A DNA stretch of 64,000 nucleotides from Blasia pusilla (GCA_050084515.1 CM114271.1:3100001-3164000); one strand, 5' to 3'. Positions 17,700 to 40,282 are shown, numbered from the stretch's first letter. Made by a program: numbers and translations. Notes: a model not told the origin generated them from the letters alone.

Positions 17700-18680
17700 C
17701 CCGTTGTGTGGCAGTGTCTAGAGGAGGGTGTTAAGATGTTACATCTCTTCGGAGGGATTAGCAGTGGATTGGCCGCAGTATTGCAAGCGGGCATACGAGT
17801 GCATCAGTACCTTTATGTGGAGAGAGATGAGATTGTGCGACAAGTATCACTATGTCACGTAGCGAGATTGGTCCAAAGGTATCCTGAATTGTTGTTGGTA
17901 TCTGCAGTACGGGGATATCAGCATACACTACCGCCGACATCTCTTTGGTGGGGGCGCAGGATCTGGATAGAGTTGGCACCATTCATTTGGTGATTGCTGG
18001 ATGGCCAGGTCAGGGTCATTCATCAGCTGGCTGAGGATTTGGATTGCAGGATCCGAGGTCAGGGATGTTTGGGAGATGCTAGGAGTAGTACGACACTTCC
18101 ACGAGAGTCAGACATGTTCTCAAGCGTACATTTTGGAGAACATGCCGTTGTTGGGAGACACTCGTGCACGTGTGATGACGAGGGTGCATCTGGTGAGGTC
18201 CTGGTTGGGACCTGCTGTGTTGCTAGATGCAGCGAGAGTTGGGTCACGTGCCCATCGTCCACGACTATGGTGGACGAACCTGATACCATCAGAGGTACTG
18301 AGTCGAGCATATGATGGAGTCCAGAGAGCACCACATCTCACAGTGGATGCTATTTTGGGGTCAGGGCGTCGATCTCAGGTGGTCACGCGGGATGATGGAC
18401 CACCGTTGGCGATGGCCAAAAGGGTGGGGGAGTTGAGGGCAACCTTATCTACGTTGGTGAGCTTCCCAACATCCCATGCCTTTCGTCAGGGAGGGCCATG
18501 CATGATTTGGGATGAGGTGACCAGACCATTGGAGGAGCCTATAGCAGATGAGCGCAAGTGCGCCATGGGGTTTGCTACCGTACTACGGCGGTGGCAGGGA
18601 TGACTGAGGCATCCCAAGACACGTGTTGGGGGAGGCAATGGACCTCAACTGTCTCACATGGATAGTCAGCCTAGGTATGG
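17700..18680 (+). pseudogene. DNMT3-like C5 DNA methyltransferase domain of G1 (frameshifted; catalytic PC reads PG)
   Basis: Motifs MLHLFGGISSGL (I), GWPGQG (IV, ~18000-18016), YILENMP (VI), SRAHRPRLWWTN (VIII), LGEAMDL (X). Confidence 0.85.
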
Positions 18681-19461
18681 CTGAGCAGAGATGGATGCGA
18701 GTATCATCCATGCCGTCACGTCCACAAGTTGGACCATTGCCTACAAGGTCTGTACAGGCATTGGCTAGGGGCGAGACAAGGAGAGATAGGCACCCATGGA
18801 TTTCTTGGGACGTCATTCGACTAGAGAGTGTGAAGGCAGCCAGAGTAGCACATGTTCATTTTTTGGATGTGGAGCATGGTGTAGGAGGTCAGGGTGGAGT
18901 GGCTGTTGCGTAGGTGGCTAAGGTTGCTACATAGCAACCAAAGCCGGAGGTTGCGCCCTCTCCAAGTGAGGTCACGATGGAGACTTGGGAGCGTGTGATA
19001 GGTCTCAAGTTGATAGGAGGAGAGCAACAGCAAATTCATAGTTTTTTTAGAGGGCATGTTACTTGTTTTGCCTTCATTATGAGAGACTTGGGTAGGCTGA
19101 AGGGTCCCGAGATACGGATTGAGTTGGCTAGTGATACGCCGATCTTTCGTCGACCCTACAGGTATTCCGATATGGAGCGAGCCTTGCTTCAGAGCAGGAG
19201 TCATGATTTGTTGGAGGGAGGACTTGTGGAGTTTCACATGGGGAGTATGCATCTGCCACAGTCATGCCGGAGAAGAAGGATATGTATGGCAATTGGACGG
19301 ATAGGCCGATGTGTGGAGATTACCATCCTATCAACCGACAGACGTGGTACGCCATGCCTACTCTTGAGGAGATCTTTGATGCGGTAGGGCATGCAAAGAT
19401 CTTTAGTACGTTAGATCTCCATGCTGGCTATCATTGGAGGACAGGGAGAAGACATCATTCT

Positions 19462-19710: not shown

Positions 19711-22062
19711 AATACCCATATACACGTAGAGAAGTCATCAATAAATGAAACAAAGTACTGGCAACCACTAAGGCTCTATTGTGATGCTGTGTATACATCA
19801 GTGTGGATCAACTCCAATATCTTGGATGCTCTTCTACCTTGCTTTGGAAAAGGAAATCTAACTTGTCTTCCAAATTGGCAAGGAGGACATACCTCTAACA
19901 TACCAGGACTCGCTAATTTAGGGAGTCCTATTACTATATTAGATGATGAAAGACTTCATAATCTTTGAAGATTCATATGTCCAATTCTTTTATGCCACAC
20001 ATTTAGATCTGTGACTTGTTGGCCGGTTTGACCATACATTGTTGTTTGAATCTCTGGCATAGAAACATCAAATTTGAACATTTTTCCTGATCTAGTTCCT
20101 TTGGCTATCGTAGTCTGATCATCCATTGTTTCAATGAAATAACCATCTGTGTTAAACTTCACTTAATAACCATGTTCTACTATCTATCCTATAGAGATTA
20201 GATTTCTTGCAATGGTAGGAACATAGAGAACATTTCCAAGAGCACAAAGACCATCCGATGCTATTAGAAATTTATCGGTATGCGTGATATGATGTTGAGT
20301 GTCATTTCCTGTGAGCACAATTGTAGGATCTTTCACTAGCTCCAAACTACTGACCCATTTCGCTTGTGAGGTCAAGTGATTTGATGCATCGGAGTCAATG
20401 TATTAATCTATTGTCGAGTCTTTCTTGACCATTGGTCTCATATGATGAGTCATGACCAAGAGATGCTCCGTTTGTGAATGTTGTTGTTCTTGGTACTGCT
20501 CTTGGTGTTGTTGCTCCACATAGTTTTGTTGTTGTAAGGCTCCTATTTTCATATCTGCCTTCTTCTTGAAGCAAAATTTTGCATAGTGACCCTTTATCCC
20601 ATAGTAATTGCAAGATCCAGGGAACCTCTACTGTTGACCTCAATCCCAACGGTTTCCATGATCACCACCATGTGATTGTGCGTGCTACTGGTTTGTACTT
20701 GATTGAGTGACGTTATATTGAGTGCCTCTTCCTCCATATGCTTGATATCCACCACAACCACGGAAGTTTCTGCCACGACCCCTGCCTTTGTTTGATCCAT
20801 AACTTGCAAATACCGCACTCTCTTGCAGACTAGACGAGCTACCGCTACCTACTAGGCGCATCTCTTCACTGATCAACAGAGGAACTAACTCTTGAAAGGT
20901 TGGATACTTCTCTCTCATAGAGATAGAGGTCTCAAAGGACTTGTTATCCTTTGGAAGACCTTAAAGAGTGAATAAGATCAGATCAACATCTTCTACTATC
21001 ACTCTAATGCTATTCAACTGATCAACAATATGTCTGATACTCAAAATATAATCATTCATGGTCTGCGATCCTTTCCTCACTTCTTTCAATTGCTGTTTCA
21101 ATTGAAGCTTTCCGGCCTTTGTAGATGTCTAGAACAACTTTTCCAATGCGTCCCAGGTCTCCTTCGGAGTATCAACATCTTGGATATGACCTATCATTGG
21201 CAAATTTATCGTTATTGAAATGTAGTGGATTACTTGCCTTGCATGCTTGTTCCAAGTGCGAACATTCAAGTCTGTTGAGTCACCTTCTGGCTTGGCCTCA
21301 TCACCTGTGACAAGCTCCCATAGTTCTTGACCTATGAGAAATTTTTTCATACGAAACTTCCATACATTATAATTGTGCTTGTCTAGCTTCTTGCCTGTGA
21401 TTGCTGTTGAGGAATACTCCATGATAAACGATTTCACTCACCAAAAATATAATTTCAGGCTTTCTATTACTCCAATTGAAGCATAGACCACTCCTACACA
21501 GAAATCAATCTGAAATTTTCCAAATTTGATCAACAGTATGAAAGAACTAGACGAAATTGGCTTGTAGAGAGCAAACTGCACAACTTTTCTTCACTAATTG
21601 CACTTTCCTACATTGAAATTGATGCCGCAAGAGCTCAGATTGTCAGAATCAAGCGATTTTGGATGCGTTGGAAAGCTCTCGATGAGCTCTAAAAATTAAG
21701 TAGTGTTGTTCTTGCCGAGACGGATCCTGACGGCCGAATCGACCGGGAAAGCCCTAAAATACGCCTCAAAAGTTTTATCACCATCAAAGCTCCATTTGAA
21801 ATTTGCACCCATAGAGCTCTGAATAAAATTTCATTCTCCCAAACTGAAAATTTTCTTTCTCTTGCCTCTCTTCTCTCTTCAAACACTAAGAATTTCAAGT
21901 GATGTTCTCCTCCCGCTCTGATACCATGTAGAAAACTGCTAAACAAGTATAACTGGTGGAAAACGGCTCTCACACACACACACCACCATAGAGAACGAAA
22001 TTTGCAATGAGAGAATGAGTGGAGGCTGGTCCTCTTCTTAATTTTATAGGGTATGTACAAGT
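19711..22062 (-). mobile_element. 5' half of a Ty1/Copia element (partial LTR, PBS, gag, protease, GAG-pre-integrase, integrase start), inverted relative to its 3' half
   Basis: LTR remnant 21927-22062 is the reverse complement of 40150-40282. PBS TGGTATCAGAGC at 21915-21926. Gag KLDKHNYNVWKFRMK; WHKRIGHMN; LELIHTDV; SFIDDFS. Confidence 0.9.
21915..21926 (-). promoter_or_regulatory. Primer-binding site (tRNA-Met type) of the Copia element
   Basis: TGGTATCAGAGC on minus, immediately after the LTR end ...TACA. Confidence 0.9.
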
Positions 22063-23539
22063 GCTTCGCACCTGGCGGTTCCAACTGTCCGATAGAAATC
22101 CAATGAGTTCCTCACCAAGACTCGCATGAAGTGAATCTCGGGTTGGAATCCAAGTGTGGCATACAAAGTCCACTCCCTTGGATCAGGTTTGGGTTTCGAG
22201 TTCCAACGCCAAACTCCCGTTCCATCCCGTGCCTTTGAAATGCCGTTTGGCGCCCAAAGTGGAGATTCGTGTTCCGAGACATCTCGGAGAGACTCCTCCC
22301 TTACTAGTACTTCTAGGGATCTCCGGGGGCCCCCTACGTTTAGGGAAAGATACCTGGGCCTCTCCAATTGGCCCTCAACCCGATTGCTCTCCCAGTAGTT
22401 TTCGGCCAATATCTCAGCTTGTACTTATGCGTTTGCTCAGATCTTTGGCGCGTTGGAAGCGTCTCAAGATAAGATTTCCAATGCGCCCTTAATTTTCCCA
22501 AATCCATCTTGGAGCTCAACGTTATGGTCCTAAACACAGTCAGATTCTCCCAAACGCTAGTCGTGTTCCAAACTGGTTCTCACCTCTTTGGCAATCAACC
22601 TCCCAAGACTCAACTCATCTCAAGTCTTGGCTTGCGTTTGGTCTAGGTTTCTTGGTCGCAACCACTAACACATGAAAAGCACAACTCTGTTCCGCGTTTC
22701 GTCTCTTAGAATTCTCCAAGAGACCTTTCCAAACGCCTCTCCAAAGCGCAAACCTCGCAGCGTGAGTTCACTTGAGTTCTAATGTTTTGCTTGGCGCCTA
22801 TTTGGTGTTGTTTGGTTATGAGGTCGCGACACTCACCCCTCCTTAGAAGGTTGATGTCCTCATCAACGCAAACCTTGTTGATGTTAAGTTTTGGGAAGCC
22901 AACCCCTTAACACTGAATCGCATTCTGGTAGCTAACCCGCAATTCCTCTTTTGGCTTAAGTCTTAGCTTGTTGCTTGCAGCACTTAGAATTATTAGCTTA
23001 TTCTCTTCGATGAGCCTGGACCAATTCTACATAACTAATCTAAACTATCAAAATAAGCTAACTAAGTCTGCAACCTAACACTCTACTCACTATCTGTAAA
23101 CAACCGCCTGTCTACCTAGCCAACTCGTATTACTTTTGGGTCACTCGTATTCCACTTAGGCGCGTCACTAAGTTCACTTATGCAACATGAATGAGATCAC
23201 CACAAACCCGAAGACAGACTAATCTGCCCCGCCGACGTTAGGGCGAGCCCAAATGCTAGTACTTCAACACTTGATCCTGATCTAGATGCCTTATCTGAAT
23301 ACAAGCTCTCACCTCAAATACTCATTGTTTGGCCTCCTTGACTTACATTCTAAGCATATGAAGAACTACTCATTGCCATGCACTACCAAACCCAAAATCA
23401 CAATCATAAACATTGAATCTCCAAATCCATGCCTTCTTTATTGCAACAACTAAACATTTCTAGTTACAACCGGTTATCGGCCCAAGCTTTCCGATCACAA
23501 GTTATGTCCTTTGCTTCACCGTGTACTAACTCACGTGCC

Positions 23540-23700
23540 TATCTTTGCGATGCTTCTTGCGCGTGTTCAAGATCTGCCTCCGCAATCCAAGTCGCCTCTT
23601 TCACATGGTAGCCTTTCCACTTGACCAAGTACTCGTACTTGGTGGCTCTACGTCTAGAACGCATAATGGTCTCAACCTCAAACTCTGGTTCCTCATTTCT
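23540..23700 (-). CDS. Chromodomain at the chromovirus integrase C-terminus
   Basis: EPEFEVETIMRSRRRATKYEYLVKWKGYHVKEATWIAEADL. Confidence 0.9.
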
Positions 23701-25425
23701 GATGATCGGTTGTGGTCTCAACATCATCCTTCGCTCTGGACGCACATCGTCTTGAAGACACTTCTTCAATAATGACACATGGAAAGTCGGGTGAATCTTG
23801 AACTCGTTTGGCAGCTCCAATGTGTACACATCCTCAAACGGCTTTGCCTTGATCACATACGGTCTAGCATACTTGGCTGACAATTTTGCGGACAATTCCT
23901 TCGGAAGAGTGAGATTCTTTACACTCAACCACACTTGTTCCCCAACTTGGAAACTCACTTGGCGCCGACTTTTGTTAGCATGCTTCACATACCTTAGTTG
24001 AGCCTTGGCAAGACTTTTCCTCGCTCGCTCTTGTTGTTCCTGCATTTCCACTAACAAACATTCCGCTGTTGCTTGACGAGTGTGTGCCGATGTAGCGCCC
24101 CTAAATAGAGCTAAGTCAAGAGGCCCTTCTGGTTCTCTTTGATACGCCAGAAGAAACGGAGATTCTCCGGTTGCAGAATGCTTAGTCGAGTTGTAACAAT
24201 ACTCAGCCATACTTAGCCACTTGGCCCAATCTCTTTGGTCTGCACTCACATAATTCCATTAGTATTGGTTTACGACCGAGTTTAATTTTTCCGTTTGCCC
24301 ATCCGTTTGAGGATGGAAGGCCGTACTAAAGTTGAGTTTGGTCCGGAACCTCCTGAATAGATGTTTCTAAAAGGCACTGGTAAACTTCGGATCTCTATCG
24401 GACACAATGCTCCTAGGCAATCCGTGAGCTCGCCACCAACCATCTAGGAACAGTCGGGAAGTCGTGTAGGCTATCGCAGACTCTCTCGTCGGCACAAACC
24501 TCCCCAACTTGCTTAACCGATCAACTATCACAAGTATAGCATTGTATCCCTCATATTCCAGAAGACTCGTAATGAAATCCATGCTAATGCTTTGCAATGG
24601 TCCCTCCGAGATTGGCAAAGAATGAAGTAAGTCTTGTTTCTTTGCATAAGAAACTCTGTTCACTTGACAGGTCACGCAGGTTTTCACATATTGAGCAACA
24701 TCTTCCTTCATGTTGGGCCAGAAGAACCTTTTGGCCAAAACAGCAAGAGTGGATTTCTCCCCTTTGTGTCCTGCCAAAGGTCCATCATGACATTCCACAA
24801 ACACCTTGGTCCGTAGCTTGCCTTGGCCTACATAGATCATGCTCTGCTTAAACCTTAGCAAGCCGTGCCTCAAACTCACATTGGCCACCTTCTCGCCCCG
24901 CTTTAACTTCCCAAGGTACTCCCTCGCTTGCGCATCCTTCATGTATCCTTCCCGAATCCTTCTTTCCAGGTCTGTTTCATTAGGGAACATTGCTCTCAAC
25001 ACTTGTGTCGTCGATGGCATATGCTCATCCCTACAACTTAACGCATCTGGAATGACATTGTCTTTCCCCGGCATGTGGATTAGCTCCACATTTGTCAACG
25101 CCAAGTTATCATGCCATCGAATTTGCTTTGGTGTTACGCGATCCTAGGTCTCAAAATACTTGAGCGATATGTTATCGGTGAATACTCGAGTCTTATGAAG
25201 TCCCTCATAGTGACGCCACTTCCTCAAGCAGTGAACCACCGTGAACAACTCTTTCTCATGAGTGGGCCATCTCCTTTCGGTGTCGCTAAGCTTCTTGCTC
25301 TCGTATGATACATGTCTTCCTTTTTGCACCAACATTCCTCCAATCGCGAAATCACTAGCATCCGTGTGCACCTTGAAGGGTTGGTCAAACTCCGGCAGCT
25401 TCAAAATTGGTTCCTGCGAAAGGAT

Positions 25426-25793
25426 TGTCATGACCATACGGATTATGTCATAGAGTATAGTGTGCTAGTAGAGGCCATACCTTATGTAGGGCCGTAGTGT
25501 CTAGATAGAGATGCGGTTTCATACATAGGGTTGGAGGTTACTCAATTGAGGGTGACTTTTCTAGTAGGGCCCGCTCTTAGGTTGGAGGATATAGTGTGGA
25601 GTGCACTCAAAGAACAGTTAGTTCTTTGACTAGAGCGTGTTGCGTTGGGAGTAGGCCTTGGTAGTGAGTAGAGCTCTTCGCTATGGTGGTTCCCGCAAGC
25701 TTCGACCTGGATTCTCCCATCTTGGAGTGGGTTTGGCTCGATTGTATGTGATTCTATATGTGTTTTATGACAGTAGGTCTTTCATGGATTTCA
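25426..25793 (+). repeat. G2 repeat A1 (368 bp)
   Basis: Direct repeat of 34685-35052. Confidence 0.95.
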
Positions 25794-27212
25794 CTCAAAG
25801 AACTAGAGTAGATCGATGGTAGCTTCGATTGGGGATCAGTAGGATCTGGTTAGGGCTGATTGTGTACTCAACCGTGGATATTCGTGGCTTGTGGCCTATG
25901 TTGGAGGTGGGAATCTGATGCGTATTTGGTTGGGAAAGAAGCACCTTGTTGAGAGATTTCCAACGCGCTTTAGATCGCCGGATTTCGTCAAGGGAGTTGG
26001 AAGTTATCAAGGATTGAAGATTCTAGTTCGTGTTCGACGGTTTTCTAATGTGGAGAGCTTGGAGTGCGGAAGCTCTGTTGAAGTTCATCCAAATTAGGTG
26101 AGAGGTTCTTGTTGCTACTTGTATTATGATCTCATGTGAAGCTATCTGCTTGAGTGTGTGGAGCGTTGCGGATTTCTGCGTGCATGAATCTAGGCGGAAG
26201 CGCTGTCGGATTTGCGATTCTGGAGGTGTATGGACAACAAGTTTGTCTGATTTTTAGCTCAGAGTACAGAGCTCGCTTGTAGCTGATTTTTTGTGGGGGA
26301 TAGCTATGGTGGGAAATTGAATTTTGGTCAAAAAAGATTCAATTTTGGTTGAGGATTTGTGGAGTAATTGCTGATCAAAATTTCGTGGACTTGCTCAAGG
26401 TCTGGCTATGGTGGACAGCACATGGGAGGGGCTGGTTGGTTGGTGACTTGTGTGTTGTTTTGAGGCTTCAAGGAAACTCGTGGTAGCTCGAGGCGAGTGG
26501 GCGTGAGAGGCAGAGTAAGGAGCAAGGAGCAAGCAAGCAAGCTTGCTTGCTTGGGCGTGAGGTTGTTTTTGCAGGATTTGTGATTTGAGTGTTGCATAAC
26601 TGGTCACCCATCTTTGGGCTATTCTGCCTGGAAGATGCTTAACTGCTGAGTTCTTAACTATGCCAGTGTACACACTGGTGTAGCTCATTTGGTGTTGTTC
26701 AGAGATGTGTTAGGCGCTTTATGCATCTCAGGTTTTTGGTTGATGGACCTCTAACGCATAATACGGCGTAGGCTCTCCATGCAGATGATATTTTCAGCTG
26801 CTACGAGTCCGACTAGCACGTCATCGACTCGCGGCGGAGTAGCTATTGCGTTAGAATTGTGTGGTGGGTTATGTGGATTCAGGGGGCGCCACCTTTGGTG
26901 GATTGTGTTACCTTGATTTCCATTTGCGATTGGAGGATTGTCGTTGGACTTCCTGTGTTTGGATCCCCTCCATCGTTGCTTCTTGCTTGCGCGCCCATTG
27001 TTAGGGTTGACGTTGATTTCCATAGTAGTGTTACTCCTGTGTGCTACGGGTAGTGAGGCTGGAGTGATGACCAATAGACCGTGGGAGGCTTCTTGTGGTG
27101 ATGACAGGTTAGGTTGCCTACACCCATAGCTAGTAGAGCTAGAATTGTACAGCGACATCGACGTCACTTGGTTACTTAGTGGTGGTAATTCGGTGGTGGT
27201 GCGGCATCAGCG

Positions 27213-30200
27213 TTGGTCATCACAGAGCTGTCTGGTGGTCTGGTTGGAGACCGTGGTGTGGACAGTGGTGGTTTCACACGGAATGGATTGAGGTATCGGC
27301 TACCTTTTCCACTTCCGACGGTTGATGAAGAGGAGGACGAGGGTGTTCCAAACACCGAGTCTTCCACGTTGTTATCAAGTGTTGCAACTCCATTGATTTG
27401 GGACATGGACGGGATATATGGGGCCATGAAGGTCCCACGATAATACTCGGGTGCATTGGGCACCATTGAGTTGGAGGACTTCATGCAGGAGTTTGATACG
27501 TGATGTGATATGCAGATGTTGTGGAACGCCACGTTGTTTACACCCTTCTTGGCTTGGAAGGGGTTGTTTCAGCATTTGGAGGGACCACCCATGGATGATT
27601 ACCATGAGTTTAGGAAGGACCATGTTGCTGAGATTGAGGCGTGGAGACAATATTGGTGTCCAGGCTATGTGTCTATCACCCATGGTGGTATTGGTAGTAG
27701 TGCTCCTACTATGCCAGCCAGCCCGACGTTGAGTGGTACGAGTACGAGCCGGAGTGGGGGTACCAGTGGAGGTACTCATGGAGGTACCAGTGGGGGTACT
27801 AGTGCCCCACCATCATTCACCCCGGTTGTAGAGTTCTTCAAGAGGTTGAAAAAGAACTATCAGGGAGTGAAGACAAAGAAGTTGACGAGTCTTCAGAAAT
27901 TTGAGCAAAAGACTGGTGAGAGTCTTCGTAAGGCATACACTCGTATGCGACGCTTGATTTCAGTTACCCATGGTGTGACTGAGGCTCAGGAAATCCAGTT
28001 TTGGTATGGGATCTTGGATAGAGAGTTGCCCCGCACGGTACGTGATGCTACTCTTATGAGTGATGATTCACCCACATTGACCCATGTGTTTGCTCTATCT
28101 GAGAAGATTGAGCTTAACATGGTGAAGGAGAGAGTGGTGACATCCACATTCAGTTGGGATATAACGACTACTTCTCGTGTTCAGCAGCCCACCTCACAGT
28201 CTTGTAGTAGTGGTGGTGGTAGTAGTAGTGGGAGTCGTGGGGGGTACACACGACCTCAGTCAGGTCCTAGAGGGACACTTGCGTAGAGACCATTGCCTTC
28301 ATTTGCTGCCCCGCAGCAAGGACAGTCATGTTGGAGATGTGGAGGTGATCATGTTAGGAGGTTTTGTCCCCAAGAGGATGGGAGACGGACTTTGGAGGAT
28401 GGGCCTCAGTCAGCCCCAACTCAATGTGATCATTGCGGGAGACCAGGTCATCCTCGAGAGCGTTGCTTTGATCTTCATCCAGAGTTGAGATCATGCCGCG
28501 GCCGTGGTGGAGTAGCTTCGAGAGGCCGAGGTGGTAGGGGTGGTAGAGGTGGATCTGTGGTTGGAGAGCCTACGGTGGCTACCCCTACCACTTCGACAGA
28601 GTCAGCTATGGCTGCCATGATTGAGCAGTTGGAGTAGAAGTTGGCTACTATGGCTGGTATCCAGCATAGATCAGGTTTGGGAGTAGGGGCTTCCACCTCT
28701 TATGGAGGGGATGATCTCTCTTATATGGCGAGTGCAGTACAGGTTGAGGCATCAGTTGGAGTTACGAGAGGAGTCACTCGAGCGTCAGAGCCACGTGGTG
28801 CTACTGTGGAGTTGGACCCACAGAGGAATGAGGTTGGGAGGCAAGCTAGGCTTCCCCAGTCATTCTTGTTGTCTGAGGTGCTTAGGACTCCATCCATGGT
28901 TCCTACACAGCCTATTGAGCCGACAGTGGGGAATGAGGCATCTACATCGCGTGTAGTAGACACGGATGCAGCATCCAGTGTAGTATTGCGGATGGCAACT
29001 TCAATGTTGGGATCCCCATTTTTTTCGGCCACGGAGCTGATGGCTTTAGGAGTTGACTTAGCTCCCGTATTTCAGCTAGCAGCCACGTTGTGTGAACGTG
29101 GGGATGTTACTGCTACACGTGATGAGGTGGATAAGGGTATTGCGGTGGAGCGACCCTCTATGTCAGGAGTAGCATGGAGTACCAGTGCTACTTGGCAGGA
29201 AGCAGCGGCGAAGATGGATGCATTACCAGCCCGGCCTACCATTGATCGTGAGAGGCTTACACCTGGTGTATGTATGTTGGACAACCGGAGTGGGATATTC
29301 TGATTGGTGAGTCCTACAGGACATGTGTATAGACCAGATAGAGTCTTGTTAGACTCTGGTGCCCAACCTTTGATGTTGGGAAAGGCGGCATGTATTGGTT
29401 TGGGTATTCGGAGGTTAGAGCTTGAGCCTTGCCCATTCCAAATTCAAACATCACTTGGAGGAGCCAATGATAGGTCTCAATTCATGACACCGGAGAAGTT
29501 TTCTGTGCCGTTAAGACTAGATCATGTGGCTGATAGCTCCCGGTTGGGAGTACCTGCAATGGTCACATCAGCCGAGTCGTATGATGTAGTAGTTGGAGGA
29601 GCAGTATTGTATCCAATGGGTTTTCAGATGGATTATTGGACTAAGATAGCGTCTTATAGACCTGGTTGGCAGTCCGGGGATGGACGTATGAGCCAAGTTC
29701 TTGTGAGATTTATTTATGGGGCTCGACCAGGAGGGTCTTCCCCAACGGTGTTAGCATCTGTGGCTGGTTTTAGTAGAGAAGTCACTTGGCCATGAGACTT
29801 TTTGGAGGGTATTGTTTCTACTATGGATTCTCCTATGCATGAGGAGGTAGAGGAGGTCCCTAGTTTTGCAGCAGTGGCATCCTCATTGTTTGATGTGCCA
29901 CTTGGGAGTTCAGGCGGTGCACTACGGCAGGAGGCTGATCGCCTAGTGCAGGAGGCTTGGTGTGAGGTTGTTATACCTCACGAGGAAGAGGACGCCCCAC
30001 ATCGGACTCCTACTTCTAATCCATTTGGGTTATCCCCTTTGGATACTACACCCATTGTATGGCAGTATTTGCCGGAGGGCATTTGTGTGTTAGATCTCTT
30101 TTGTGGGATTAGCACTGGTTTGGCTGCATTGTTGCAAACCGGTATTCGTGTGCGGAGATACGTGTATGTGGAGCAAGATGAGATGGCCCATAGAGTCTCA

Positions 30201-33200
30201 TCCCGACATATTGGTCAGTTGATGCGGAAATATCCTAAGTTGTTGCCGCCATCAGCTATTCGTGGGTACCAGCGTGCTTTGCCGTCACACATTGCATTGT
30301 TGGGGGCGCATGACCTTGAGAGGGTTAGTCTTGTGGATTTGGTGATTGTTGGATGGCCATGTCAGGGTTATACACGTGTTGGTTGTGGTGAGGGATTACA
30401 CAACCCTAGGTCTCAATTGTTTTGGGAGATGTTGCGGGTGTTACGACATCTTCAGGTTCATCAGGCACGTGCTCCAACTTACATTCTGGAGAATGTTCCA
30501 TTGTTGGGTGACACTCGGACCCGGATGATGGCGAGTGTTCATGAGGTGTGGTCTTGGATTGGACCAGCGGTGTTGTTGGATGCAACGCAAGTTGGCTCGC
30601 GTGCACATCGTCCACGCTTGTGGTGGACAAACTTGTTGCCTAGGGAGGTTCTAAGTTGAGCGTATGATGCAGTACAGCGGGATCCTTTCCTTACAGTGGA
30701 TAGTATCTTGGATACTCGGCGACTTTCTCAGGTGGTGAGGGTTATTGATCGGTCATCCATGGCAGTGGTGAACCGTGTGGGCCAGCCTAGGATGGCACTA
30801 CCCACATTTGTGAGTATTCCCTCGTCATATGCCTACAGGGAAGGTGGTCCCGGGCTTGTATGGGATTCTCATATGCGACAGTTGGTGGAGCCTAACGCTG
30901 ATGAGAGAGAGCGTATGATGGGATTTGCTACTGGTGTGACAGCGGTTGCACCCATTTCTGAGGCTTCACGACGTCATGTGTTGGGTCAGGCCATGGATCT
31001 GAATTGTTTGACTTGGATTTTGAGTCTTGGTATGGCCGAGCATCGTCGACTTCGGACTATGTCTGTGGGTCTTCCACCCCTTATAATGAGCCCTATGGCT
31101 ACCGGGACAGTAGAGGCATCGGCTGGGGGCGAGGAGAGTAGTATTTTGCATCCTTGAAGTAAATGGGATGTAATGGCTAGGCATGTGGAGTTGGTTGCTC
31201 ATGCTGGTGGAGGAGTTATTTGCTCACGTGATGGTGTAGCTAAGGGTGTACTATCTTGTGAGGGGATTGCGTAGCAGCCAATAGCATCATCCTCTCTCTC
31301 TAATGTGCCAGTGGAGGAGACTTGGGAGCCATTACTTGGGCCCAAGCTTACGGGAGGTGAGAAACGACGCTTGACAAAGTTCCTACGTGCTTATAGGAGT
31401 TGTTTTGCCTTTAGCATGAAGGAGTTGTGTGCTTTGGTTGGACCCGGTATACGGATTGATTTGGCTAGTGATACGCCAATCTTCCGTCATCCCTATCGAT
31501 ATAGTGATATGGAGAGGGACCTCATTCAGAGTAGGACATTGGACCTTTTGGAAGCTGGATTAGTGGAGTTGTTGCATGGAGAGTATGCATCAGCCACTGT
31601 CATGCTTGCTAAAAAGGATGTGCATGGCTACTACACGGATAGGCGGATGTGTGGAAATTACCGTCTTATCAATCCGCAGACCAAGGCTGATAGGTATGCC
31701 ATGCCTACACTTGAGGAGATCTTTGATGTGGTGGGACAGGCAAAGATTTTCAGTACTTTGGATCTTCGGGCGGGATACCATCAGTTGCCGATTCGAGAGA
31801 GTGACAAGGCCAAGACAACATTTTTGGGTGTCAACTCTCATGGCAAGGATTGTTTGTACCAATGGAAATTCTTACCCTTTGGGTTGAAGAATGCACCTGC
31901 CGAGTTTCATAGAGTGATGGACAGGATCCTAGCAGGGTTAGATTTTTTCGGTGTTACATTGATGATATCTTGGTGTTCAGTAACACGGTGGAGGAGCATT
32001 AGATACATTTGCAGATTGTGTTTGAGCGGTTGAAAGCTCATGGTCTACGTTTGCATCCAGGAAAGTGTAAGTTCTTCCATGAGGATGTTGAGTACTTGGG
32101 TCGTGTGATCTATCCAAGTGGTTTGGGAGTTCAGCAAGCAAAGATGGAAGCTATTGCACTTATTCCTCGTCCGGTAGATGTGAGTAGAGTTCGGGCATTC
32201 ATGGGATTGGCGAACTACTATCAGAGGTATGTGAAGGGATTTAGTGCTATGGCAAAGCCTTTGAACCAATTGTTGAAATCAGATCAGAAGTGGCACTAGG
32301 GAGATGATCAGGAGAGAGCTTTTGTGGAGCTCAAGGCCCAGTTGGTGGCGGCGCCTATCTTGAGGAGACCTATCAAAGGACGCCCATTTCAGTTACACAA
32401 TGATTGGAATAGGTTGGTACTTGGAGCGGTGTTGACACAACATGATGATGAGCACATGGAGTTTATGGTGGCCTATGCAAGTCGTTCGAATAATGCAGCG
32501 GAGTCGCGCTATAGTTCATATGAGGGAGAGTGCTTGGCAGTAGTGTGGGTTGTGGCACACCTTAGGTGTTACTTGTTTGGCACACAGTTTACCCTTGTTA
32601 CTGATCACCACCCGCTCAAGTGGTTGATGGAGTCTGACAAGCTTGCAGGGAAGCTTGCACGGTGGGCTCTTATTTTACAGGAGTATGACTTCCAGGTGGT
32701 ACATAAACTTGGAGTTGCCAACCTTGATGCTGATGGGTTGAGTAGGAACCCATGTACTAGCCAAGAGGATGCAACTTGGGCTAGATGGCATGGCGAGGTT
32801 GATGAGGAGATGGTGCCAGGTTGGCATGCATCCGCCTTTTTATGTTGGTTAGGGGTGGACTCTAGTATGGAGGACCACATGACATCTTACTCTAGCCAGA
32901 GGGTAGATGGCCAGCCTTCAGATCCTAAGGTTGGAGATGGTGGTATGGATCAGCGTGATATTCATGATGATGCGTTGATGTTGGAGTTCCTATGGACCAG
33001 TAGGGTGCCAGGCATAGTGAGTGCTAAGGAGCGAGACCGTATTCTTCAATGTGCTAAGAGGTATCACTCGGAGGGAACACATATTCTCCATGTGTGGGAG
33101 GATGGTAGAGTACGAGTAGTGCCCCATTTGGCTCAGAGAGAGCGCATTGTGCGACATGGCCATGAGGAGTTGGGACATTTTGGGGTGAAGCGTACGTATA

Positions 33201-34403
33201 ACTTACTCCTTGGTCAGTATTGGTGGCGTGGCATGCATACTCAGGTGCAGCAGTTGGTGTCACATTGTATGGTTTGTGACCGGGTGAGGGCATCATTCAA
33301 TGCCCCTACACCACAGTTACACCCCTTGCCTATTATGGGGTTGGATTACCGTTGGAGTGTGGACTTTGCGGGACCTTTATCGTTGACTGTACGACATCAT
33401 CGATATGTGTTGGTGATGGTGGAGCACTTCTCTAAGTGGATTGAGTTGGTGGCATTACTTGACAAGGCAAGTGAGGGAACGGCGTATGCGTTTCTTGATA
33501 GAGTGCTTAGTCATTTTGGTGCACCACCAAGTGAAGTCGATCGACGACCAGGGTCTGAGTTTGGGGGGTAAGTTTCAGGTCTTGTGTGACAAGGCGTTGA
33601 TTGATCATCGAACCATGTCTCAAGATCATCTAGAGGCGGATGGTTTGGTTGAGCATGTGATTCAGACGGTGAAGAGGGCATTGCGCAAGTATGGCCTACA
33701 AAAGGGGCATCTTGGAGACTGGAATATTCAGTTGTCATGGTTAGCCATGGGGTATAGGTTTAGTCGCCAAGCATCCTTGGCTTCCTTCTCACCTTATTTT
33801 CCGTTATACGGCCGAGATCCAGACTTGCCAGCATCAATTTATCGGGAGTCTAGTGAGGTGGTGAACCTTGATGACCCAGAGATGTGGATGAGAGTGTGTT
33901 CTCAGCGGGCAGAGTTCTTTCGGAGAGTTATGCCAACAGCCTTTGAGAATCTTGCCATTGCTCAACAGAGGGATACGTTACGGTATGCAACTATTCAGGG
34001 AAGAGGTTATCGACCATCGATTCGTAGGTTCCATGTGGGGGACTATGTCTATTTGTAACAGATTGCACCGACAATGTTGGATGTGACGGCAAGACGCACT
34101 ATTTTACGAGTGCGAGAGGTGTTAGCTTCTGGAGTTCTCATGTTGGAGGGTCGTGATGGAGTTGTTTGGAAGGACCATGTGCGTAATCGTGCGTCATGTC
34201 ATCTTCCAAATGTGGATGGTACTGTTGACCCAAGCTTAGCCATGATACGTGCTAGCTTGAGATGCATGTTGAGTGGGTCTGCTGGTAACGCAGCCCGTAT
34301 GTCGGTGTGTGATCGGTGTTCTAGGGGTTGGCACATGATGTGTTTGACTCCACATATGGATGTTGTTCCTACTGGAAGGTGGGTTTGTCCTCGATGTACT
34401 TAG
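27213..34403 (+). pseudogene. G2 gag-pol polyprotein with embedded methyltransferase
   Basis: Gag with two knuckles (28293-28637); protease VLLDSGAQPL (~29340); MTase (30060-31050); RT (FSTLDLRAGYHQL, LPFGLKNAP); RNase H (SSYEGECLAVVW); integrase (H-H-C-C, WSVDFAGPL); PHD. About 11 single stops and 2 frameshifts. Confidence 0.95.
30060..31050 (+). CDS. DNMT3-like C5 cytosine methyltransferase domain of G2 (catalytic PCQ intact; one internal TGA at 30657)
   Basis: VLDLFCGISTGL (I), YVYVEQD (II), DLVIVGWPCQG (IV, 30357-30365), YILENVP (VI), SRAHRPRLWWTNLLP (VIII), ERERMMGFATGVT (IX), RRHVLGQAMDL (X). Confidence 0.92.
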
Positions 34404-34576
34404 GAGAGGTAGATGAATTGATCTTTGCATTATATGGATTACGGATGTGCGAGTAACGATGGGGCAACCTAGCACCCGGCCTTCTGATTCGTGCACCCAC
34501 GAAGGTGTATAGCATGTAGTAGATGTATAGGGCTATCTAGGAGTTAGAGGGACCTAACCGCCAGTTAGGGGGACGA

Positions 34577-35158
34577 GTTGTGGTACACTTGTGTTTGTGT
34601 ATGCTCTCGTCTATGTTATGTATGTATGTGAATATGGTCTGTCAGCGATGTACGTTGTATGACGATGTGGATTCGCATGACAACTATCATGACCATACGG
34701 ATAATTTTGTAGAGTATAGTGTGCTAGTAGAGGCCATACCTTGTGTAGGGCCATAGTGTCTAGGTAGAGATGCGGTTTCATACATAGGGTTGGGAGTTAC
34801 TCAGTTGAGGGTGACTTTTCCAGTAGGGCCCGCTCTTAGGTTGGAGGATATAGTGTGGAGTGCACTCAAAGCACAGTTAATTCTTTGAGTTGAGCCTGTT
34901 GCGTTGGGAGTAAGCCTTGGTAGTGAGTAGAGCTCTTGGCTATGGTGGTTCCTACAAGCTTCGACCTGGATTCTCCCATCGTGGAGTGGGTTTGGCTCGA
35001 TTGTATATGATTCTATATGTATTTTATGACAATAGGTTTTTCACGGATTTCAGTTGTGGTACACTTGTGTTTGTGTATGCTCTCGTCTATGTTATGTATG
35101 TATGTGAGTATGGTATGTCAGCGATGTATGTTGTATGACGATGTGGATTCGCACGACA
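34577..35158 (+). repeat. G2 3' terminal block B1(34577-34682)-AC-A2(34685-35052)-B2(35053-35158)
   Basis: B1 and B2 are 106-bp direct repeats. A2 matches A1. Purine tract AGGGGGACGAG lies just before B1. Confidence 0.95.
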
Positions 35159-37487
35159 GGATCTCTTTGACTCAATTGAACGCTTTATCCACTTCCTCGG
35201 TCTATGTAGTGTTGGAAAACTTTGTGGTCCAATCCGTGAGAGGTTTCACTATTCCCGAAAATTTCTTCACGTATGTCCGCTAAAACTGGACCGCTCTGAT
35301 GAACCTCCCCATCCCCTTCATAGTGGAAGGCGGTTCCCATTCGGCAATTGTGCTTACCTTTTCCATCTCTGGACTCGTTCCATTTGCGCTAACCACATGC
35401 CCCAAGAACTTGATCTTCGTCAAACCAAACTCACTCTTATCCGCATTTGCATATAGCTTGTTCGCCCTGAGTTTCTCAAACACTGTCTTCAAATGTTGAG
35501 CGTGCTCCTCTAGTGTTTTCGAATAGATGATTATGTCATAAATATAGATGATCACAAACTCATCCGTTTCCTTATGAAAGATGGAGTTCATCAAAGTAGT
35601 GAACGTTGGAGGCGCATTACAAAGACCGAAAGGCATTATCACAAACTTGAACGAACCGTATCTCGTTCTACACGCATACTTCTCTACATCCGCTTCGGTA
35701 ATCCGAATCTGATAATATCCTGATTTCAGGTCAATCCGGCTGAAATACTTGGCACGTGCCAATCGATCAAAGAGTTCATCCATCCTTGGGAGAGGATAGT
35801 TGTTCCTTACCGTCACTTTATTCAGCGCCCGGTAATCAACACAGAGTCTCAACTTCCCATCCTTCTTCTTCACAAAGAGGACGGGCGCCCCACTAGGTGG
35901 CTTGCTAGTTCGGATGTAACCCCTCTCTAGGAGTTCACCCAACTTTTTCTTCAACTCAGCAGGTTCCTCTTGATTCAACTTATATGGTGCTTTTGAAGGT
36001 GGTTGAGATCCGGGTATCACCTCAATCTTATGATCAGCCGCCCTATGTGGTGGCAACTCAGTCGGAAACTCCTTAGTCAACACATCTCCAAATTCTTTCA
36101 CAACTCTCTTGAGTGTTTCAAGGATTCCCCTTGAAGCTGAGTTCTGATCTTTGCATCACGCTCACCCCCATTCCAAACCCTCTTGGATGTCCCTGTGTTT
36201 TTTGGTAACTTAGAAAAACTTTTTGGCTCAAAGGTTTTCTGATGTTGGACTTCATCGTCCCCAATCCGCTATGCTAGCTTCAGAAGATCCGCGCACGTCT
36301 CTAGGATGTGAGGCATACGAAAGAGGGACTTTTCGGCGCTCGGTTTGAGTCCACTTAAGAAGATCACCTTTTTCGTATGTTCATCCGTGGAAAGTGCACT
36401 CATGAGTGCACTAAACTCTCGCACATAAGCGCCAAGGGATCCGCTCTGGCGGAACCTCACAACCTCCATGCCATCGCGATACTCCTGATATTCTGGAGTG
36501 AATCGGTTCCCAATCAACTCCTTAAAATCTTCCCAGCTCAACATTTTCCCACGGCCTAGATCTTCTTTATGGTGAGCCTTCCACCAATTGAGAGCGTGAT
36601 CCTTCAGATCCACTACCGCTACAGTCACCTTGTCTTGTTCATCTCCCTTTTTTGCTTTGAAATAAAGTTCGAGTTCCGTTAGAAACTTGCTCACTTTCCG
36701 AGAACGCCCCATTCCTGTGAATGGCGTTGGAAAATTTCTTACAAAGCTTCTTGCCGGAACTAGAGGCTCCATTTGACTTGAATTCCATTATCACCTTGCT
36801 CTGTTCGGCCATCTGATCCGCCATCACCTTCATCAATCCCATCATTTGGATATAAAAGGCCGGATCGATTGAGTTTGGAACTGAAGGTCCCGCGGAAAGA
36901 TTTTCGGTTGAAACATCCTCATGTCTGGGACTCGGCACTTCGAGAGTCGCAATTTCCATCTCTGGCTCTCGGTCCGTCATTGATTCGTCTCTTGGCTTTT
37001 TTGCTTTGACTCGCGGTTTCCTCGGTTCTTCGCCCTTGGTCGCCATTCGCGAGTCTTCACTTTCTCATATCTCCTCCTCGCCTCTTGTGTTCCTCCTCAG
37101 ACGTCGCGATATTTTGGCTACCTTGAGTTCTCCCCAAACGTCCACATCTTCTACGACCCCAATTTCACGCTCATCAAGGATTAGCTCTGACACCACGTGT
37201 CGTGCGCCTACTCTCCTTGAACGCTAATCTTGTTGTTGCGGAAGCGTACGTTCAGTAGGTCACGCTCTCAACGCTGATCTGCATCCAAACACGCACTCTG
37301 GTTAGTCAGGTCTTGGATCAATCAGCCGGATAACTTTCCAAGTTCTCCTCTCGGACTCTCATCAAGCTCACCCTTCCTAGTTTCGCAGTTTACAACACGG
37401 GTAAGTCTCGAAAGACTTGGGACAAACTTTCTGGTCGGTTCAGGAACCTGAAATCGCGTTTCGCGCCTGGTTATGAGGGTCACGATA

Positions 37488-40282
37488 GGTATACTTTTTG
37501 AAAGCCAAGTCAGAGGTATTCTCAGTGTTCCAAACATTTAGAGTTCTAGTAGAGAAGCAGACTAGACAACACATTCTGAAATTACGTTGTGATGGAGGAG
37601 GAGAATATCTTTCAACAAAGTTTGATGACTATTTACATCAGAATGGCATCCAACGTCAAGTGACTTGCCGCTACACTTCACAACAAAATGGAGTGGTTGA
37701 GAGGAAAAATTGACATATTTCTGAAGCGGCACGAGCTATGTTGAATGAGAAGAACATGCCTAAGGTGTATTGGGCAGAGGATGTAGCATGTGCCGTCTTC
37801 TTAATCAACCGAACTCCAACATCAGGAGTTCATGATAAAACTCCATTCAAAGTCTTCACAGGAAGTAAACCTGATTTTCCTTCTTGAAAGTATTTGGCTG
37901 TATATGTTACGCTCGTGTTCCTTCTGAGAGACGTCAGAAATTATACCCCAAGTTTGAAAGATGTATCTTCATTGGCTATGCTGATGGAACTAAGGGATGT
38001 AAGTGCTACATTCCATCCTCTAGGCAGCTAATTATTAGTCGGGATGTTGTCTTTGATGAGCTAAAGTCATGGTATGCTCCATATGAGCCTATTCCACCTC
38101 TAAACTTGTCTGTTGAGGGGGAGAATATGACTATAAACCAACAGAAATTATCTTCAACTTCCCCAAGTACTAGTGCATGATTAGGAGAGGTCCTAGATTC
38201 ATCCATTAAATCTGTGAGTCCATGGACGAGAAGAGTACATATTCAGTCTGTTAACATTAGTTAGAGCTTGAGTCATAGGCATCTACCTCAGAACAACAAC
38301 TTTGTAGATCAAATAGAGTTACACATCCAGTTCATAGATTCATAAATGAAGGTTTCCTTACGACACATCATGCATATATGATGACTACCCTTCAAGAGCA
38401 GCAGCCAAGTTTTTTTAAAGAAGCTGCGAGTAAAGCCGAATGGATTGAAGCTATGGGGGAAGAGCTTGCTCCATTAAGACATCAACAAACATGAGAGCTG
38501 GTTGATATACTTTCCGATAAGGAAGCTATTGGTTGCAAATGGGTTTACAAAATCAAACGCAATCAAGATGGTACAATGAACAGATACAAAGCGAGATTAG
38601 TGACTAAGGGCTGTGCACAACAATATGGTATCGATTATGAGGAAACATTTAGCCATGTTGCAAAGATGGTGACTACGAGAATAGTGGTTGCAGTTGCAAT
38701 AAGTAAGAAGTGAAGATTACATCACATGGACCTCAAGAATGCCTTCTTGAATGGAGATCTATATGACGAGGTATATATGACTCAACCACCTGGATATGAG
38801 CATCCAAAATTTCCATTTCACGTATGCAAGTTGAAGAAAGCTCTATACGGGCTCAAACAAGCTCCAAGAGCTTGCTATGGCAAGATTACATACGTCCTAC
38901 AAGAGTTAGATTTTAGGGTATGTGATTCTGACTCCTCGTTATATGTCTTGAGAGGACAAGATTATATAGTTCTCATTTTGTTGTATGTTGATGATCTCTT
39001 GATTACTGGGAATATTGAAGAAATGGTACAACAAGTCAAGCTTAAATTACAAGCAGAATTTGATATGAAGGACTTGAGAGAACTCAAGTACTTCCTTGGT
39101 ATTGAGTTTATCAAGGTTGGAGAGAGCATGTGGTTACTACAACGACAATATGCTCTTTATATGCTTTCAAAATATTGTATGACAACTTGTAAGCCAATCT
39201 CTACACCGTTGAACCAGAGTGTGAAGCTAAGAGTGGATGAAGGAGAGTTGCTTGCAGATTCTAATATGTACAGACGCATGGTTTAAAGTTTGATCTATCT
39301 AACTATAACCAAACCAGATTTGAGCTATGTTGTTGGCCTAGTGAGTCAATTTATGCAAGCACCTCGAAAACCTCACCTTGATGTTGTGAGGAGGATTATG
39401 CGGTATGTGAAATTCTCTATTCAATTTGGGCTTCAATTTGAACCTTCTTTGAGTTTTCAATTACAGGGATTCACAGTTGCTGATTGGGCAGGAAGTGTCT
39501 CTGATCGACACTCCACATCTGGTTATTCATTTACTTTGGGAAGCGCAGCTATAAGTTGGGCTTCAAAGAACCAACCTACAATTGCTTTATCTTCAACAGA
39601 GGCTGAGTATAGAGGAGCAACCAATGCAGCATGTGAGGCGGTGTGGTTTCATCGATTACTTGTTGAGATTGATGTTAGTAACTTAGGACCTAGTGTAATA
39701 TATCTAGATAATATAAGTAGCATCAAGCTTGCTAATAACCCTGTGTTTCATGCTCGTACAAAGCATGTTGAGTTGCACTATCATTTTATCAGAGAGAAAG
39801 TGCTTGCAGGAGAAATTGATCTTGTGTATATAGGTACAGATCAGTAAATTGCTGGCATCTTTACAAAGGCATTGTAAAGATGTTTGAAATGTTTATAAAA
39901 GATGTTAGAGATAAGTTTTAAATGTTTATAAAAGATTTAGGCGTTAGAGATATCGATATGAGCTTGAGGGGGAGTATTGAAGATTGAGTTACAGTCAAGC
40001 TCATGAGACACCTAAATTGCTATATTTGGCACTCATACGAAGTAGGGAAGCTTAATCTTGGTTAGTCAGTTAAGCACGATTATCTTAACCATGGTTAGTT
40101 AATCACAGTTAGGCTAACTCGCGACTATGGTTAAGGATAGGGTTAGGGTTGCTTGTACATACCCTATATAATTGAGAAAAGGACCAGCCTCCACTCATTC
40201 TCTCATTGCAAATTTTGTTCTCCATGGTGGTGTGTGTGTGTGTGTGAGAGTCATTTTCCACCAGTTATGCTTGTTTTCCACA
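37488..40282 (+). mobile_element. 3' half of the Ty1/Copia element (integrase, RT, RNase H, PPT, 3' LTR 39975-40282)
   Basis: LRCDGGGEY, QQNGVVERKN, MDLKNAFLNG, LYGLKQAPR, LYVDDLLI, SSTEAEY, HARTKHVELHYHFIREKV; PPT TTGAGGGGGAG 39964-39974. Confidence 0.95.

Follow-up and report, generated by a model that had tools for sequence, protein, structure and literature searches.

The closest described systems to the elements treated here are retrotransposons that carry a DNMT3-like cytosine methyltransferase, namely KnitGypsy-Dnmt3 and SymbioDIRS-Dnmt3. According to the accessible part of its description, KnitGypsy-Dnmt3 from Klebsormidium nitens combines the Gypsy domain set with an intron-less, non-permuted DNMT3-like domain inside its polyprotein; the Klebsormidium elements are placed in the DNMT3 clade by a tree, show Ka/Ks values below 0.2, and take on the A-coding-B-A-B repeat layout of DIRS elements (PMC5890265). 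SymbioDIRS-Dnmt3 from Symbiodinium is, in the same source, a DIRS element with a tyrosine recombinase, a DNMT3-like domain and A-coding-B-A-B repeats, and its enzyme methylates CG de novo in yeast (PMC5890265). The accessible text of a 2026 preprint additionally names “streptophytes (Gypsy-DNMT3)” (10.64898/2026.05.21.726589). The stretch of Blasia pusilla DNA analyzed here (GCA_050084515.1 CM114271.1:3100001-3164000), which is 64,000 nucleotides long and is called the window, is eukaryotic, is packed with retrotransposons, and harbors five fragments of one retrotransposon family. Three of these (G1, G2, and G3) contain a DNMT3-like methyltransferase. As far as identity and anatomy are concerned, the window copies are likely decayed members of a bryophyte Ty3/Gypsy-type family of the same kind as KnitGypsy-Dnmt3. 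An initial reading of the window from its letters (the sequence-only reading) had cited de Mendoza et al. 2018 as precedent, which is real and, in its accessible text, concerns the same kind of element (PMC5890265).

All testable traits of KnitGypsy-Dnmt3 recur in the window, including the low ratio of nonsynonymous to synonymous substitutions (dN/dS, 0.18-0.20 here) and the DIRS-like repeats; this likeness is to the published description. The family differs in its host, which is a land plant (a bryophyte), and in its high copy numbers. Set against the accessible text on KnitGypsy-Dnmt3, a conserved stop codon, a PHD finger, 4-bp target duplications, TG...CA ends, and a candidate self-priming site are features described only here. 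From SymbioDIRS-Dnmt3, as described in that text, the family is distinguished by a DDE integrase with an H2C2 zinc finger and by target duplications. A full-text literature search returned Gypsy-DNMT3 elements only for one charophyte alga, besides the passing mention of streptophytes, and returned no bryophyte family, stop, PHD finger, or target duplications; the supplements of PMC5890265 (Figs S13, S14) and PMC12344493 lay outside this search and may hold bryophyte sequences. What is new here is the conserved stop, the PHD finger behind the integrase, the TG...CA ends with 4-bp duplications, and the sense transcripts of relatives.

Identity of the methyltransferase

The methyltransferase is DNMT3-like and non-permuted, an assignment that draws on similarity in sequence, profile, and fold together with the motif order. 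In G2, the methyltransferase region spans 29796-31157 on the plus strand, with the core at 30030-31049. The Pfam profile PF00145, which the sequence-only reading had proposed as a check, matches 29796-30659 with an expectation value (E) of 1.2e-9 and 38.5 bits against a cut-off of 22, and it matches relatives too; the C-terminal half (30660-31157) gave no Pfam match when searched alone. The motifs follow one another in the order I-IV-VI-VIII-IX-X, unlike in DRM. They comprise motif I (LDLFCGISTGL, 30090-30122), motif IV (GWPCQG, 30351-30368), motif VI (ENVP, 30489-30500), motif VIII (SRAHRPRLWWTNL, 30597-30635), motif IX (ERERMMGF, 30903-30926), and motif X (LGQAMDLN, 30981-31004), all on the plus strand.

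A phmmer search of the Protein Data Bank (PDB) returned 36 distinct sequences, the best 29 of which are DNMT3A, DNMT3B, or DNMT3C (best E 5e-11), followed by six DRM chains and M.HaeIII. A family profile (A1), built from an alignment of 18 diverse members, scores DNMT3A highest with 99 bits (1.7e-27), followed by DNMT3B/C (about 91), DRM (62-69), M.HhaI (38), and DNMT2 (36). For the DRM chains, the alignment is limited to the C-terminal half with motifs I-V and covers query residues 72-203, and neither DNMT1 nor a chromomethylase is found among the 58 PDB entries that the profile retrieves at E<=1. An AlphaFold model from the same alignment has a predicted template-modelling (TM) score of 0.76 and a mean predicted local distance difference test value of 71.8; its core is confident, and confidence is poor in the first 40 residues at the N-terminus, between residues 319 and 344, and in the tail. 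Its Foldseek matches in the PDB, among those listed (ranks 1-50), are all DNMT3A/B/C, with TM scores of 0.74-0.82 on separately solved catalytic-domain chains. The best sequence, profile, and fold matches are cellular DNMT3A/3B/3C and plant DRM2, with the motif order being that of DNMT3, and the claim of the sequence-only reading that the domain resembles DNMT3 and is not permuted as in DRM is borne out.

The family shares motif I (LF-G-I-x-T-G) and motif VIII (AHR-R-x-W-x-NL) with DNMT3. Motifs VIII and IX are farther apart than in DNMT3A (about 90 residues, partly of low confidence in the model), and neither an ADD nor a PWWP domain was found by Pfam. The catalytic cysteine of motif IV, the glutamate of ENV, and the arginine of motif VIII are each at least 90% conserved across the 18 aligned members, as are the motif I residues.

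Anatomy of the window copies

The five fragments were located by tblastn with translated pieces of G2. G2 is a full-length copy on the plus strand (25426-35159), as is G3 (42053-56549); G1 is a truncated plus-strand copy that extends from the linker through protease and methyltransferase to the start of the reverse transcriptase (16723-19434). The two other fragments lack the methyltransferase region. One is an integrase-PHD tail on the minus strand (96-1444; 71% identical to G2 33233-34576 by blastn, tblastn match at 344-1444) and the other a gag-only piece on the plus strand (3193-4249 by blastn; tblastn match from 3251). G1, G2, and G3 are only about 67% identical in DNA. The methyltransferase lies between protease and reverse transcriptase in all three, in slightly wider limits than first read (17679-18796 in G1, 29796-31157 in G2, and 46947-48139 in G3).

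The first open reading frame (ORF1) of G2 (27405-31271, plus strand) encodes a gag with two CCHC knuckles, a linker, an aspartic protease (LLDSGAQ), and the methyltransferase, and is broken by in-frame stops. ORF2 (31275-34403, plus strand) encodes reverse transcriptase (31638-31943), RNase H (32303-32686), integrase (33131-34058), and a PHD finger (34263-34397). Pfam searches with nine G2 pieces identified RVT_1 (E 1e-12), RT_RNaseH (9e-33), Integrase_H2C2 (2.3e-15), and PHD (4.4e-8). The matches to rve (1.8e-5) and gag (0.0024, weak) stay below their cut-offs in G2; relatives have a full rve. No Pfam match was obtained for the G2 pieces that cover the protease, the zinc knuckles, the C-terminal methyltransferase half, and the continuation of the integrase (33417-34058). 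In the G2 translation, the DSG motif of the protease and both CCHC knuckles are readable, and PF13650 and PF00098 are found in relatives. The Pfam matches give the order protease-reverse transcriptase-RNase H-integrase with a DDE integrase, which is that of Ty3/Gypsy elements, the group named by the sequence-only reading. In G3, the corresponding plus-strand parts are gag (44574-45500), protease (46423-46851), methyltransferase (46947-48139), reverse transcriptase-RNase H-integrase (48400-51066), and PHD (51076-51411).

The sequence-only reading had also described one G2 frame broken by single stops. Such a frame does run from 27504 to 32033 through gag, protease, methyltransferase, and the first part of the reverse transcriptase, with stops at 28284, 28635, 29301, 29793, 30657, 31155, and 31272; a frameshift follows inside the reverse transcriptase near 32003, and ORF2 is frameshifted again near 33417-33571. 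The TGA at 30657 (30657-30659), noticed in the same reading, is real, and G1 and G3 have an arginine at that position. The six stops other than 31272 are damage and are not conserved. The motifs I-X that had been assigned to all three copies are complete in G2 but not in the others: G1 has lost the catalytic cysteine (GWPGQG) and carries frameshifts, and in G3 a stop directly follows the cysteine (GWPC*G), besides several other stops and frameshifts.

Selection on the methyltransferase

The three methyltransferase copies differ mainly at third codon positions. By the Nei-Gojobori method (355-368 codons, with dS saturated at 1.4-1.7), dN/dS is 0.184 for G1-G2, 0.176 for G2-G3, and 0.199 for G1-G3, which lies far from 1, the value that the sequence-only reading had named as a refutation. 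Between G2 and G3, the methyltransferase core has a value of 0.185, compared to 0.13 for the protease, 0.20 and 0.23 for the reverse transcriptase, 0.115 for RNase H-integrase, 0.08 for the C-terminal part of the integrase, and 0.15 for the PHD region. The linkers and the N-terminal extension of the methyltransferase are at 0.37-0.65, and the core read in the wrong frames gives 0.70 and 2.1. Since the values of the core and of the reverse transcriptase are alike, purifying selection constrained the methyltransferase as strongly as the reverse transcriptase while the three lineages diverged.

Relatives and their spread

The family is widely represented outside the window. A word-indexed protein search returned 129 proteins, the named ones being from Calypogeia fissa, Sphagnum species, Marchantia polymorpha, and Riccia sorocarpa (best 60-78% identical), and a search for longer proteins returned 49, including Marchantia gene models of 943-1333 amino acids at 59-70% identity. 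Among cluster representatives, searched exhaustively, 2577 matched at E<=1e-3, of which 744 reach E<=1e-10 and 221 reach E<=1e-30; a distant cluster bears the name pol and comes from the green alga Scenedesmus sp. PABB004 (KAF8056149.1). No Klebsormidium or canonical DNMT3 entry was returned by the three protein searches and one cluster look-up. In metagenome contigs, 459 stretches were matched, 422 of which encode a relative, and 80 of these confirmed stretches were kept and fetched (L numbers). The nearly intact L042 is open in a single frame across 321-6809 apart from two stops; its methyltransferase lies in an uninterrupted frame of 438 codons (3195-4508), and Marchantia Mp_4g09160 likewise has an uninterrupted methyltransferase domain at its C-terminus.

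Two domain orders occur among 328 stored proteins, either protease-methyltransferase-(reverse transcriptase-RNase H-integrase-PHD) as in the window, or reverse transcriptase-RNase H-methyltransferase-integrase-PHD as in Scenedesmus. In a quick IQ-TREE analysis of 78 methyltransferase domains (chosen from 192 near-full-length ones as all named rows plus random samples per type, with no outgroup), the two orders are split by one branch with 99% support in the Shimodaira-Hasegawa-like approximate likelihood ratio test (SH-aLRT), and all 22 bryophyte-type rows form one clade (100%). The Scenedesmus-type relatives share a homologous methyltransferase (36-37% identity) and the same PHD tail; they differ in the placement of the methyltransferase between RNase H and integrase and in forming a separate clade (99% SH-aLRT). 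This sister group comprises the proteins P0157 and P0321 and about 80 others. G2 groups with Marchantia and Sphagnum rows (98%), and G1 and G3 stand outside, with L042 and a Calypogeia row. Because G2 stands apart from G1 and G3, the window holds at least two old lineages of the family.

A conserved stop between methyltransferase and reverse transcriptase

A stop codon is found at the boundary of methyltransferase and reverse transcriptase throughout most of the family. The context is TAG CAG CCA in G2 (31272-31280, plus strand), TAG CAA CCA in G1 (18932), and TAG CAA CCA in G3 (48335), which is now frameshifted. At the homologous codon, L042, which is about 57% identical in the methyltransferase, carries TAG CAA CCA, preceded by Ala and followed by Gln-Pro. 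The boundary is covered in 59 loci, and in 52 of them a stop (33 TAG, 19 TAA) precedes CAA CCN (49 CCC, 2 CCA, 1 CCT); the other seven are L024 (TAG CAA CTC), L074 (GAG), L068 (TAG TAG CCA), L062 and L063, which differ, and L021 and L073, in which the search landed elsewhere. The reading frames agree on both sides of the stop. Gene models of Marchantia (1159-1278 amino acids) and Calypogeia start at the gag methionine (MDGMYGA...) and end exactly at the stop, and more distant complete ORFs (1228-1451 amino acids) likewise end just past the methyltransferase. A basal group (e.g. P0129) has no stop and reads through to the integrase. Since the lineages that share the stop have dN/dS well below 1 on both sides of it, the stop was present while they were active. 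A second conserved stop, at the boundary of protease and methyltransferase, was considered and rejected, as the stops of G2 (29793) and L042 (3192) differ in place and are thus mutations.

Gammaretroviruses have a gag-UAG-pol arrangement, in which the UAG stands in frame before the polymerase, as in the family. The same holds for the tobamovirus-type leaky stop, whose consensus UAG_CAR_YYA, as given in the accessible part of its source (PMC3542737), is matched exactly by all three window copies; compared to both, the upstream product of the family carries a protease and a methyltransferase besides gag. The layout suggests that ORF1 (gag-protease-DNMT) is probably the main product and that Pol with the PHD finger would be made by readthrough. 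Because the conserved stop separates gag-protease-DNMT from reverse transcriptase-RNase H-integrase-PHD, the methyltransferase belongs to the Gag-level product. The sequence-only reading had placed it inside Pol; its status as a fixed coding part stands, but with the conserved TAG at 31272 it becomes the C-terminal part of ORF1.

The integrase and its PHD finger

Residues 69-113 of the G2 translation of 34059-34403 match PF00628. The closest PDB sequences to this PHD finger are CHD4 (2.4e-12), MLL3, DPF2/3, ATXR5, KDM5A/B, PHF21A, AIRE, and UHRF1; many such PHD fingers read the unmodified H3 tail. The finger is retained in G3, in the minus-strand fragment, and in distant relatives. A chromatin reader fused to the C-terminus of the integrase is also found in chromoviruses, with the difference being that their reader is a chromodomain and that of the family a PHD finger. 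No tyrosine recombinase or phage-integrase domain was found by Pfam in G2 or its relatives, and the integrase consists of DDE and H2C2 parts.

Repeats, termini, and the insertion site

The ends are not plain identical long terminal repeats (LTRs) with an adjacent tRNA primer site. The left end has a repeat A only (25 loci and G2), and the right end B-A-B or B. In G2, A1 (25426-25793, plus strand, with the left terminus TGTCATGACC) is 92.9% identical to A2; the right end (34576-35159, plus strand) is built of B1 (34576-34682), four nucleotides, A2 (34687-35052), and B2 (35053-35159), which ends in ...GCACGACA and is 96% identical to B1. A G-rich polypurine tract directly precedes B1 (34566-34575, plus strand) and is the same in G3, L057, and L041. 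G3 follows the same A-coding-B-A-B plan on the plus strand (A1 42053-43475, B1 ~51601-51714, A2 51725-53156, B2 ~56429-56549), with A1 and A2 95.8% identical; the repeats were placed by blast comparisons and by reading the junctions. Between A2 and B2 of G3, at 53153-56432, lie six extra head-to-tail copies of the last ~555 bp of A, 88-95% identical to the end of A1, and this tandem array amounts to a small satellite that arose from the repeat of the element.

Among the fetched loci, A alone stands 3.1-4.9 kb upstream of the methyltransferase in 25. The right end is B-A-B in L005, L046, L057, and L080 and B alone in ten loci, with variants in L058, L061, L062, and L063 and a B-A end cut by the contig end in L011. 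A-coding-B-A-B is seen as whole elements in G2, G3, and L057 and at the 3′ ends of L005, L046, and L080. The termini are conserved (left TGTCATGAC, right ...GCACGACA) and give the elements TG...CA ends. Perfect 4-bp target duplications flank four of the six elements examined at both ends, namely G2 (GGAT, 25422-25425 and 35160-35163), L029 (TTCA), L040 (TACA), and L058 (CACA); in L027, three of four bases agree, and the left end of L057 is decayed. A target duplication of G3 is not recognizable, its left terminus being decayed. The internal B1/A2 junction (...ACA-NN-TGT...) consists of the two termini abutted and looks like a circle junction. The A2/B2 junction directly joins the base beside the candidate primer site to the base beside the purine tract.

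The sequence that follows A is CTCAAAGAAC (25794-25808 in G2, plus strand) and does not start with TGG. Over 10-14 nucleotides after A, it is conserved in most of 24 elements (23 loci and G2), and in 12 of the 24 its reverse complement of at least 10 nucleotides lies inside A, at 25619-25629 in G2; GAAT variants change on both sides. The arrangement resembles Tf1-type self-priming, and the motif is, by this analogy, a lead toward a candidate self-priming site. A canonical tRNA primer site (TGGTAGC, 25-38 nucleotides after A in G2 and G3), of which only seven nucleotides are shared, was dropped for the CTCAAAGAAC motif.

G2 is inserted in the pol gene of a chromovirus on the minus strand, whose reverse transcriptase covers 36017-35238, whose RNase H resumes at 25422, and whose chromodomain lies at 23539-24258. 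The gap between the reverse transcriptase and RNase H matches fits the G2 insertion site within about one codon. The split chromovirus as a whole (23539-25422 and 35238-36155, minus strand) comprises reverse transcriptase, RNase H, Integrase_H2C2, a Tf2-1 SH3 domain, and the chromodomain.

Transcripts

Raw reads from three stranded RNA runs that carry the same species label were mapped at 90% likeness on 25300-35300. They gave 4371, 4286, and 4700 mapped reads, with a depth of 7-190 in each of 30 bins and of 36-89 in the methyltransferase bins. The reads are 90-99% like G2, and almost all have the first mate on the minus strand, which corresponds to sense RNA in most stranded libraries. In each of the three runs, a group of molecules (21, 11, and 13) has its start at 25587, which is position 160 of A. 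Numerous reads pass from the end of B into the start of A across a single intervening letter, as expected from the B1/A2 junction of relatives; linear and circular forms are not separated by these reads. In a DNA run, the summed depth is very high, which shows that the family is highly repeated.

At 32918-33931, 16, 31, and 47 RNA reads skip 1012 bases and carry nine other letters, at a local depth of about 80-130, which suggests that a relative whose integrase core is deleted internally or replaced is expressed. At 26557-27210, 4, 1, and 11 reads skip 652 bases of the long leader of G2. The distance from A1 to the methyltransferase is about 600 bp longer in G2 than in L057, and the G2 leader probably carries an insertion at 26557-27210.

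Proposed mechanism and alternative explanations

The proposed mechanism starts with Pol being made by leaky readthrough, so that the methyltransferase would be produced in Gag amounts and would, with fair probability, enter the particle as a Gag-protease-DNMT fusion. There it could methylate the element's own new double-stranded cDNA, with new copies arriving marked, a step that is given somewhat less than an even chance; it may also, or instead, methylate the DNA of the insertion site. The PHD finger could tether integration to chromatin with unmodified H3 tails, which is plausible without being favored. More doubtful is the step in which reverse transcription would yield a B-A repeat and the integrase would cut a circular cDNA at the palindromic CA-N(1-2)-TG junction inside B-A. 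Circles with one or two repeats would form, and cutting would give A-coding-B or A-coding-B-A-B; retroviral cDNA circles and the circle junctions of IS3-type elements inform this model. In its widest form, which is speculative and rather unlikely to hold as a whole, the family would belong to a lineage of green plants and algae that unites LTR and DIRS features. A B-A repeat, perhaps self-primed, would be combined with circular cDNA and a DDE integrase acting at the junction as in IS3-type elements, the Gag-linked DNMT3-like enzyme would act on the free circle, and, with the family being abundant and expressed, its enzyme may add de novo methylation to bryophyte genomes.

Several observations weigh against this mechanism or against the DNMT3 placement. 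All five window fragments are dead, and a plus-strand ORF of at least 500 amino acids is present in only one of the 80 fetched loci (L042). Only 0, 2, and 3 RNA reads of the three runs are at least 99% alike to G2, and the sense transcripts therefore come from close relatives and not from G2 itself. Concerning the placement of the methyltransferase, motif IV reads PCQ in the family and PCN in the aligned DNMT3A. The domain of KnitGypsy-Dnmt3 gave no methylation in yeast, a result that its authors call inconclusive in the accessible text (PMC5890265). Concerning readthrough, the published CAR-YYA is missed at its final base by most loci, whose codons read CAA CCC. Concerning priming, the RNA 5′ end at 25587 lies 32 nucleotides upstream of the primer-complementary stretch, and Tf1-like self-priming would need an internal cut. 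The circle model itself rests on the anatomy of about ten copies, and the A-coding-B copies could equally come from recombination between B1 and B2, which would also turn A-coding-B-A-B into A-coding-B.

Different targets can be envisaged for an active enzyme. In one alternative, the methyltransferase, directed by the integrase-PHD part, acts on host DNA around the insertion or on host chromatin at large and creates a silent neighborhood in which the element is safe. The resemblance of the finger to CHD4, DPF2/3, ATXR5, KDM5, and UHRF1 and the position of G2 inside another retrotransposon are consistent with this explanation, which is nevertheless unlikely, as methyltransferase and PHD finger end up in separate products unless the stop is read through without a protease cut. 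Methylation of RNA or of an RNA:DNA hybrid during reverse transcription, perhaps marking the genomic RNA, is improbable. It would suit an enzyme encoded in the Gag-side ORF1, which handles RNA, and the accessible text of de Mendoza et al. 2018 both reports the Klebsormidium domain as giving no DNA methylation in yeast and raises RNA methylation for another retrotransposon DNMT that is inactive on DNA (PMC5890265). The family profile, however, scores DNMT3 at 99 bits and the RNA enzyme DNMT2 at 36, and by fold the model matches DNMT3 chains, including some whose structures contain DNA.

A role without catalysis, in which the domain is kept as a DNA- or chromatin-binding module comparable to DNMT3L, is quite improbable as well. 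A pseudo-enzyme would not be expected to keep these residues as the family does, in which the catalytic cysteine, ENV, and the residues of motifs I and VIII reach at least 90% conservation among the 18 members, even if the accessible text names no Gypsy-DNMT3 with demonstrated activity (PMC5890265). Chance pick-up or mere adjacency of a host DNMT3 gene or pseudogene that plays no role in the element, for which the DNMT3 genes reported from bryophytes (PMC5890265, accessible text) and the broken state of all methyltransferase copies in the window could be invoked, can practically be dismissed in view of the unchanged position and frame of the domain in three lineages with only about 67% DNA identity, a dN/dS of about 0.18 (0.18-0.20 over all pairs) equal to that of the reverse transcriptase, and hundreds of relatives with the same architecture, all of which agrees with the sequence-only reading.

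Composition and neighboring elements

The ratio of observed to expected CpG is 0.27 in the frames of L042 (321-6809) and 0.55-0.84 in the window copies. Strand skew was rejected as a sign of deamination or editing, as the excess of G on the sense strand (+0.16 to +0.25) is also found in the near-intact L042 and in unrelated window elements. A Copia-type reverse transcriptase (RVT_2, E 1.2e-46) and ORFs that resemble a Copia gag by eye belong to the neighboring elements at 38714-39286 (plus strand) and 20685-21437 (minus strand). Two 169-bp tandem units, 93% identical, are found at 14317-14654 inside a repetitive stretch (13998-14750) with open frames on both strands. Behind the retrotransposon cluster, 58001-60000 is very AT-rich (GC 0.255), and the observed/expected CpG ratio is 0.36 over 57000-64000.

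Biological meaning

DNA methyltransferases borne by transposons invert the familiar relationship, in which methylation is applied by the host to keep transposons silent. The Gypsy-DNMT3 kind is large, diverse, and transcribed in land plants, including the genetically testable Marchantia. Its ORF layout, with the enzyme placed together with Gag ahead of a putative leaky stop and a PHD finger attached to the integrase, bears on how and when the enzyme could act. The combination of permuted repeats with target duplications raises a testable question of the route by which these elements integrate.

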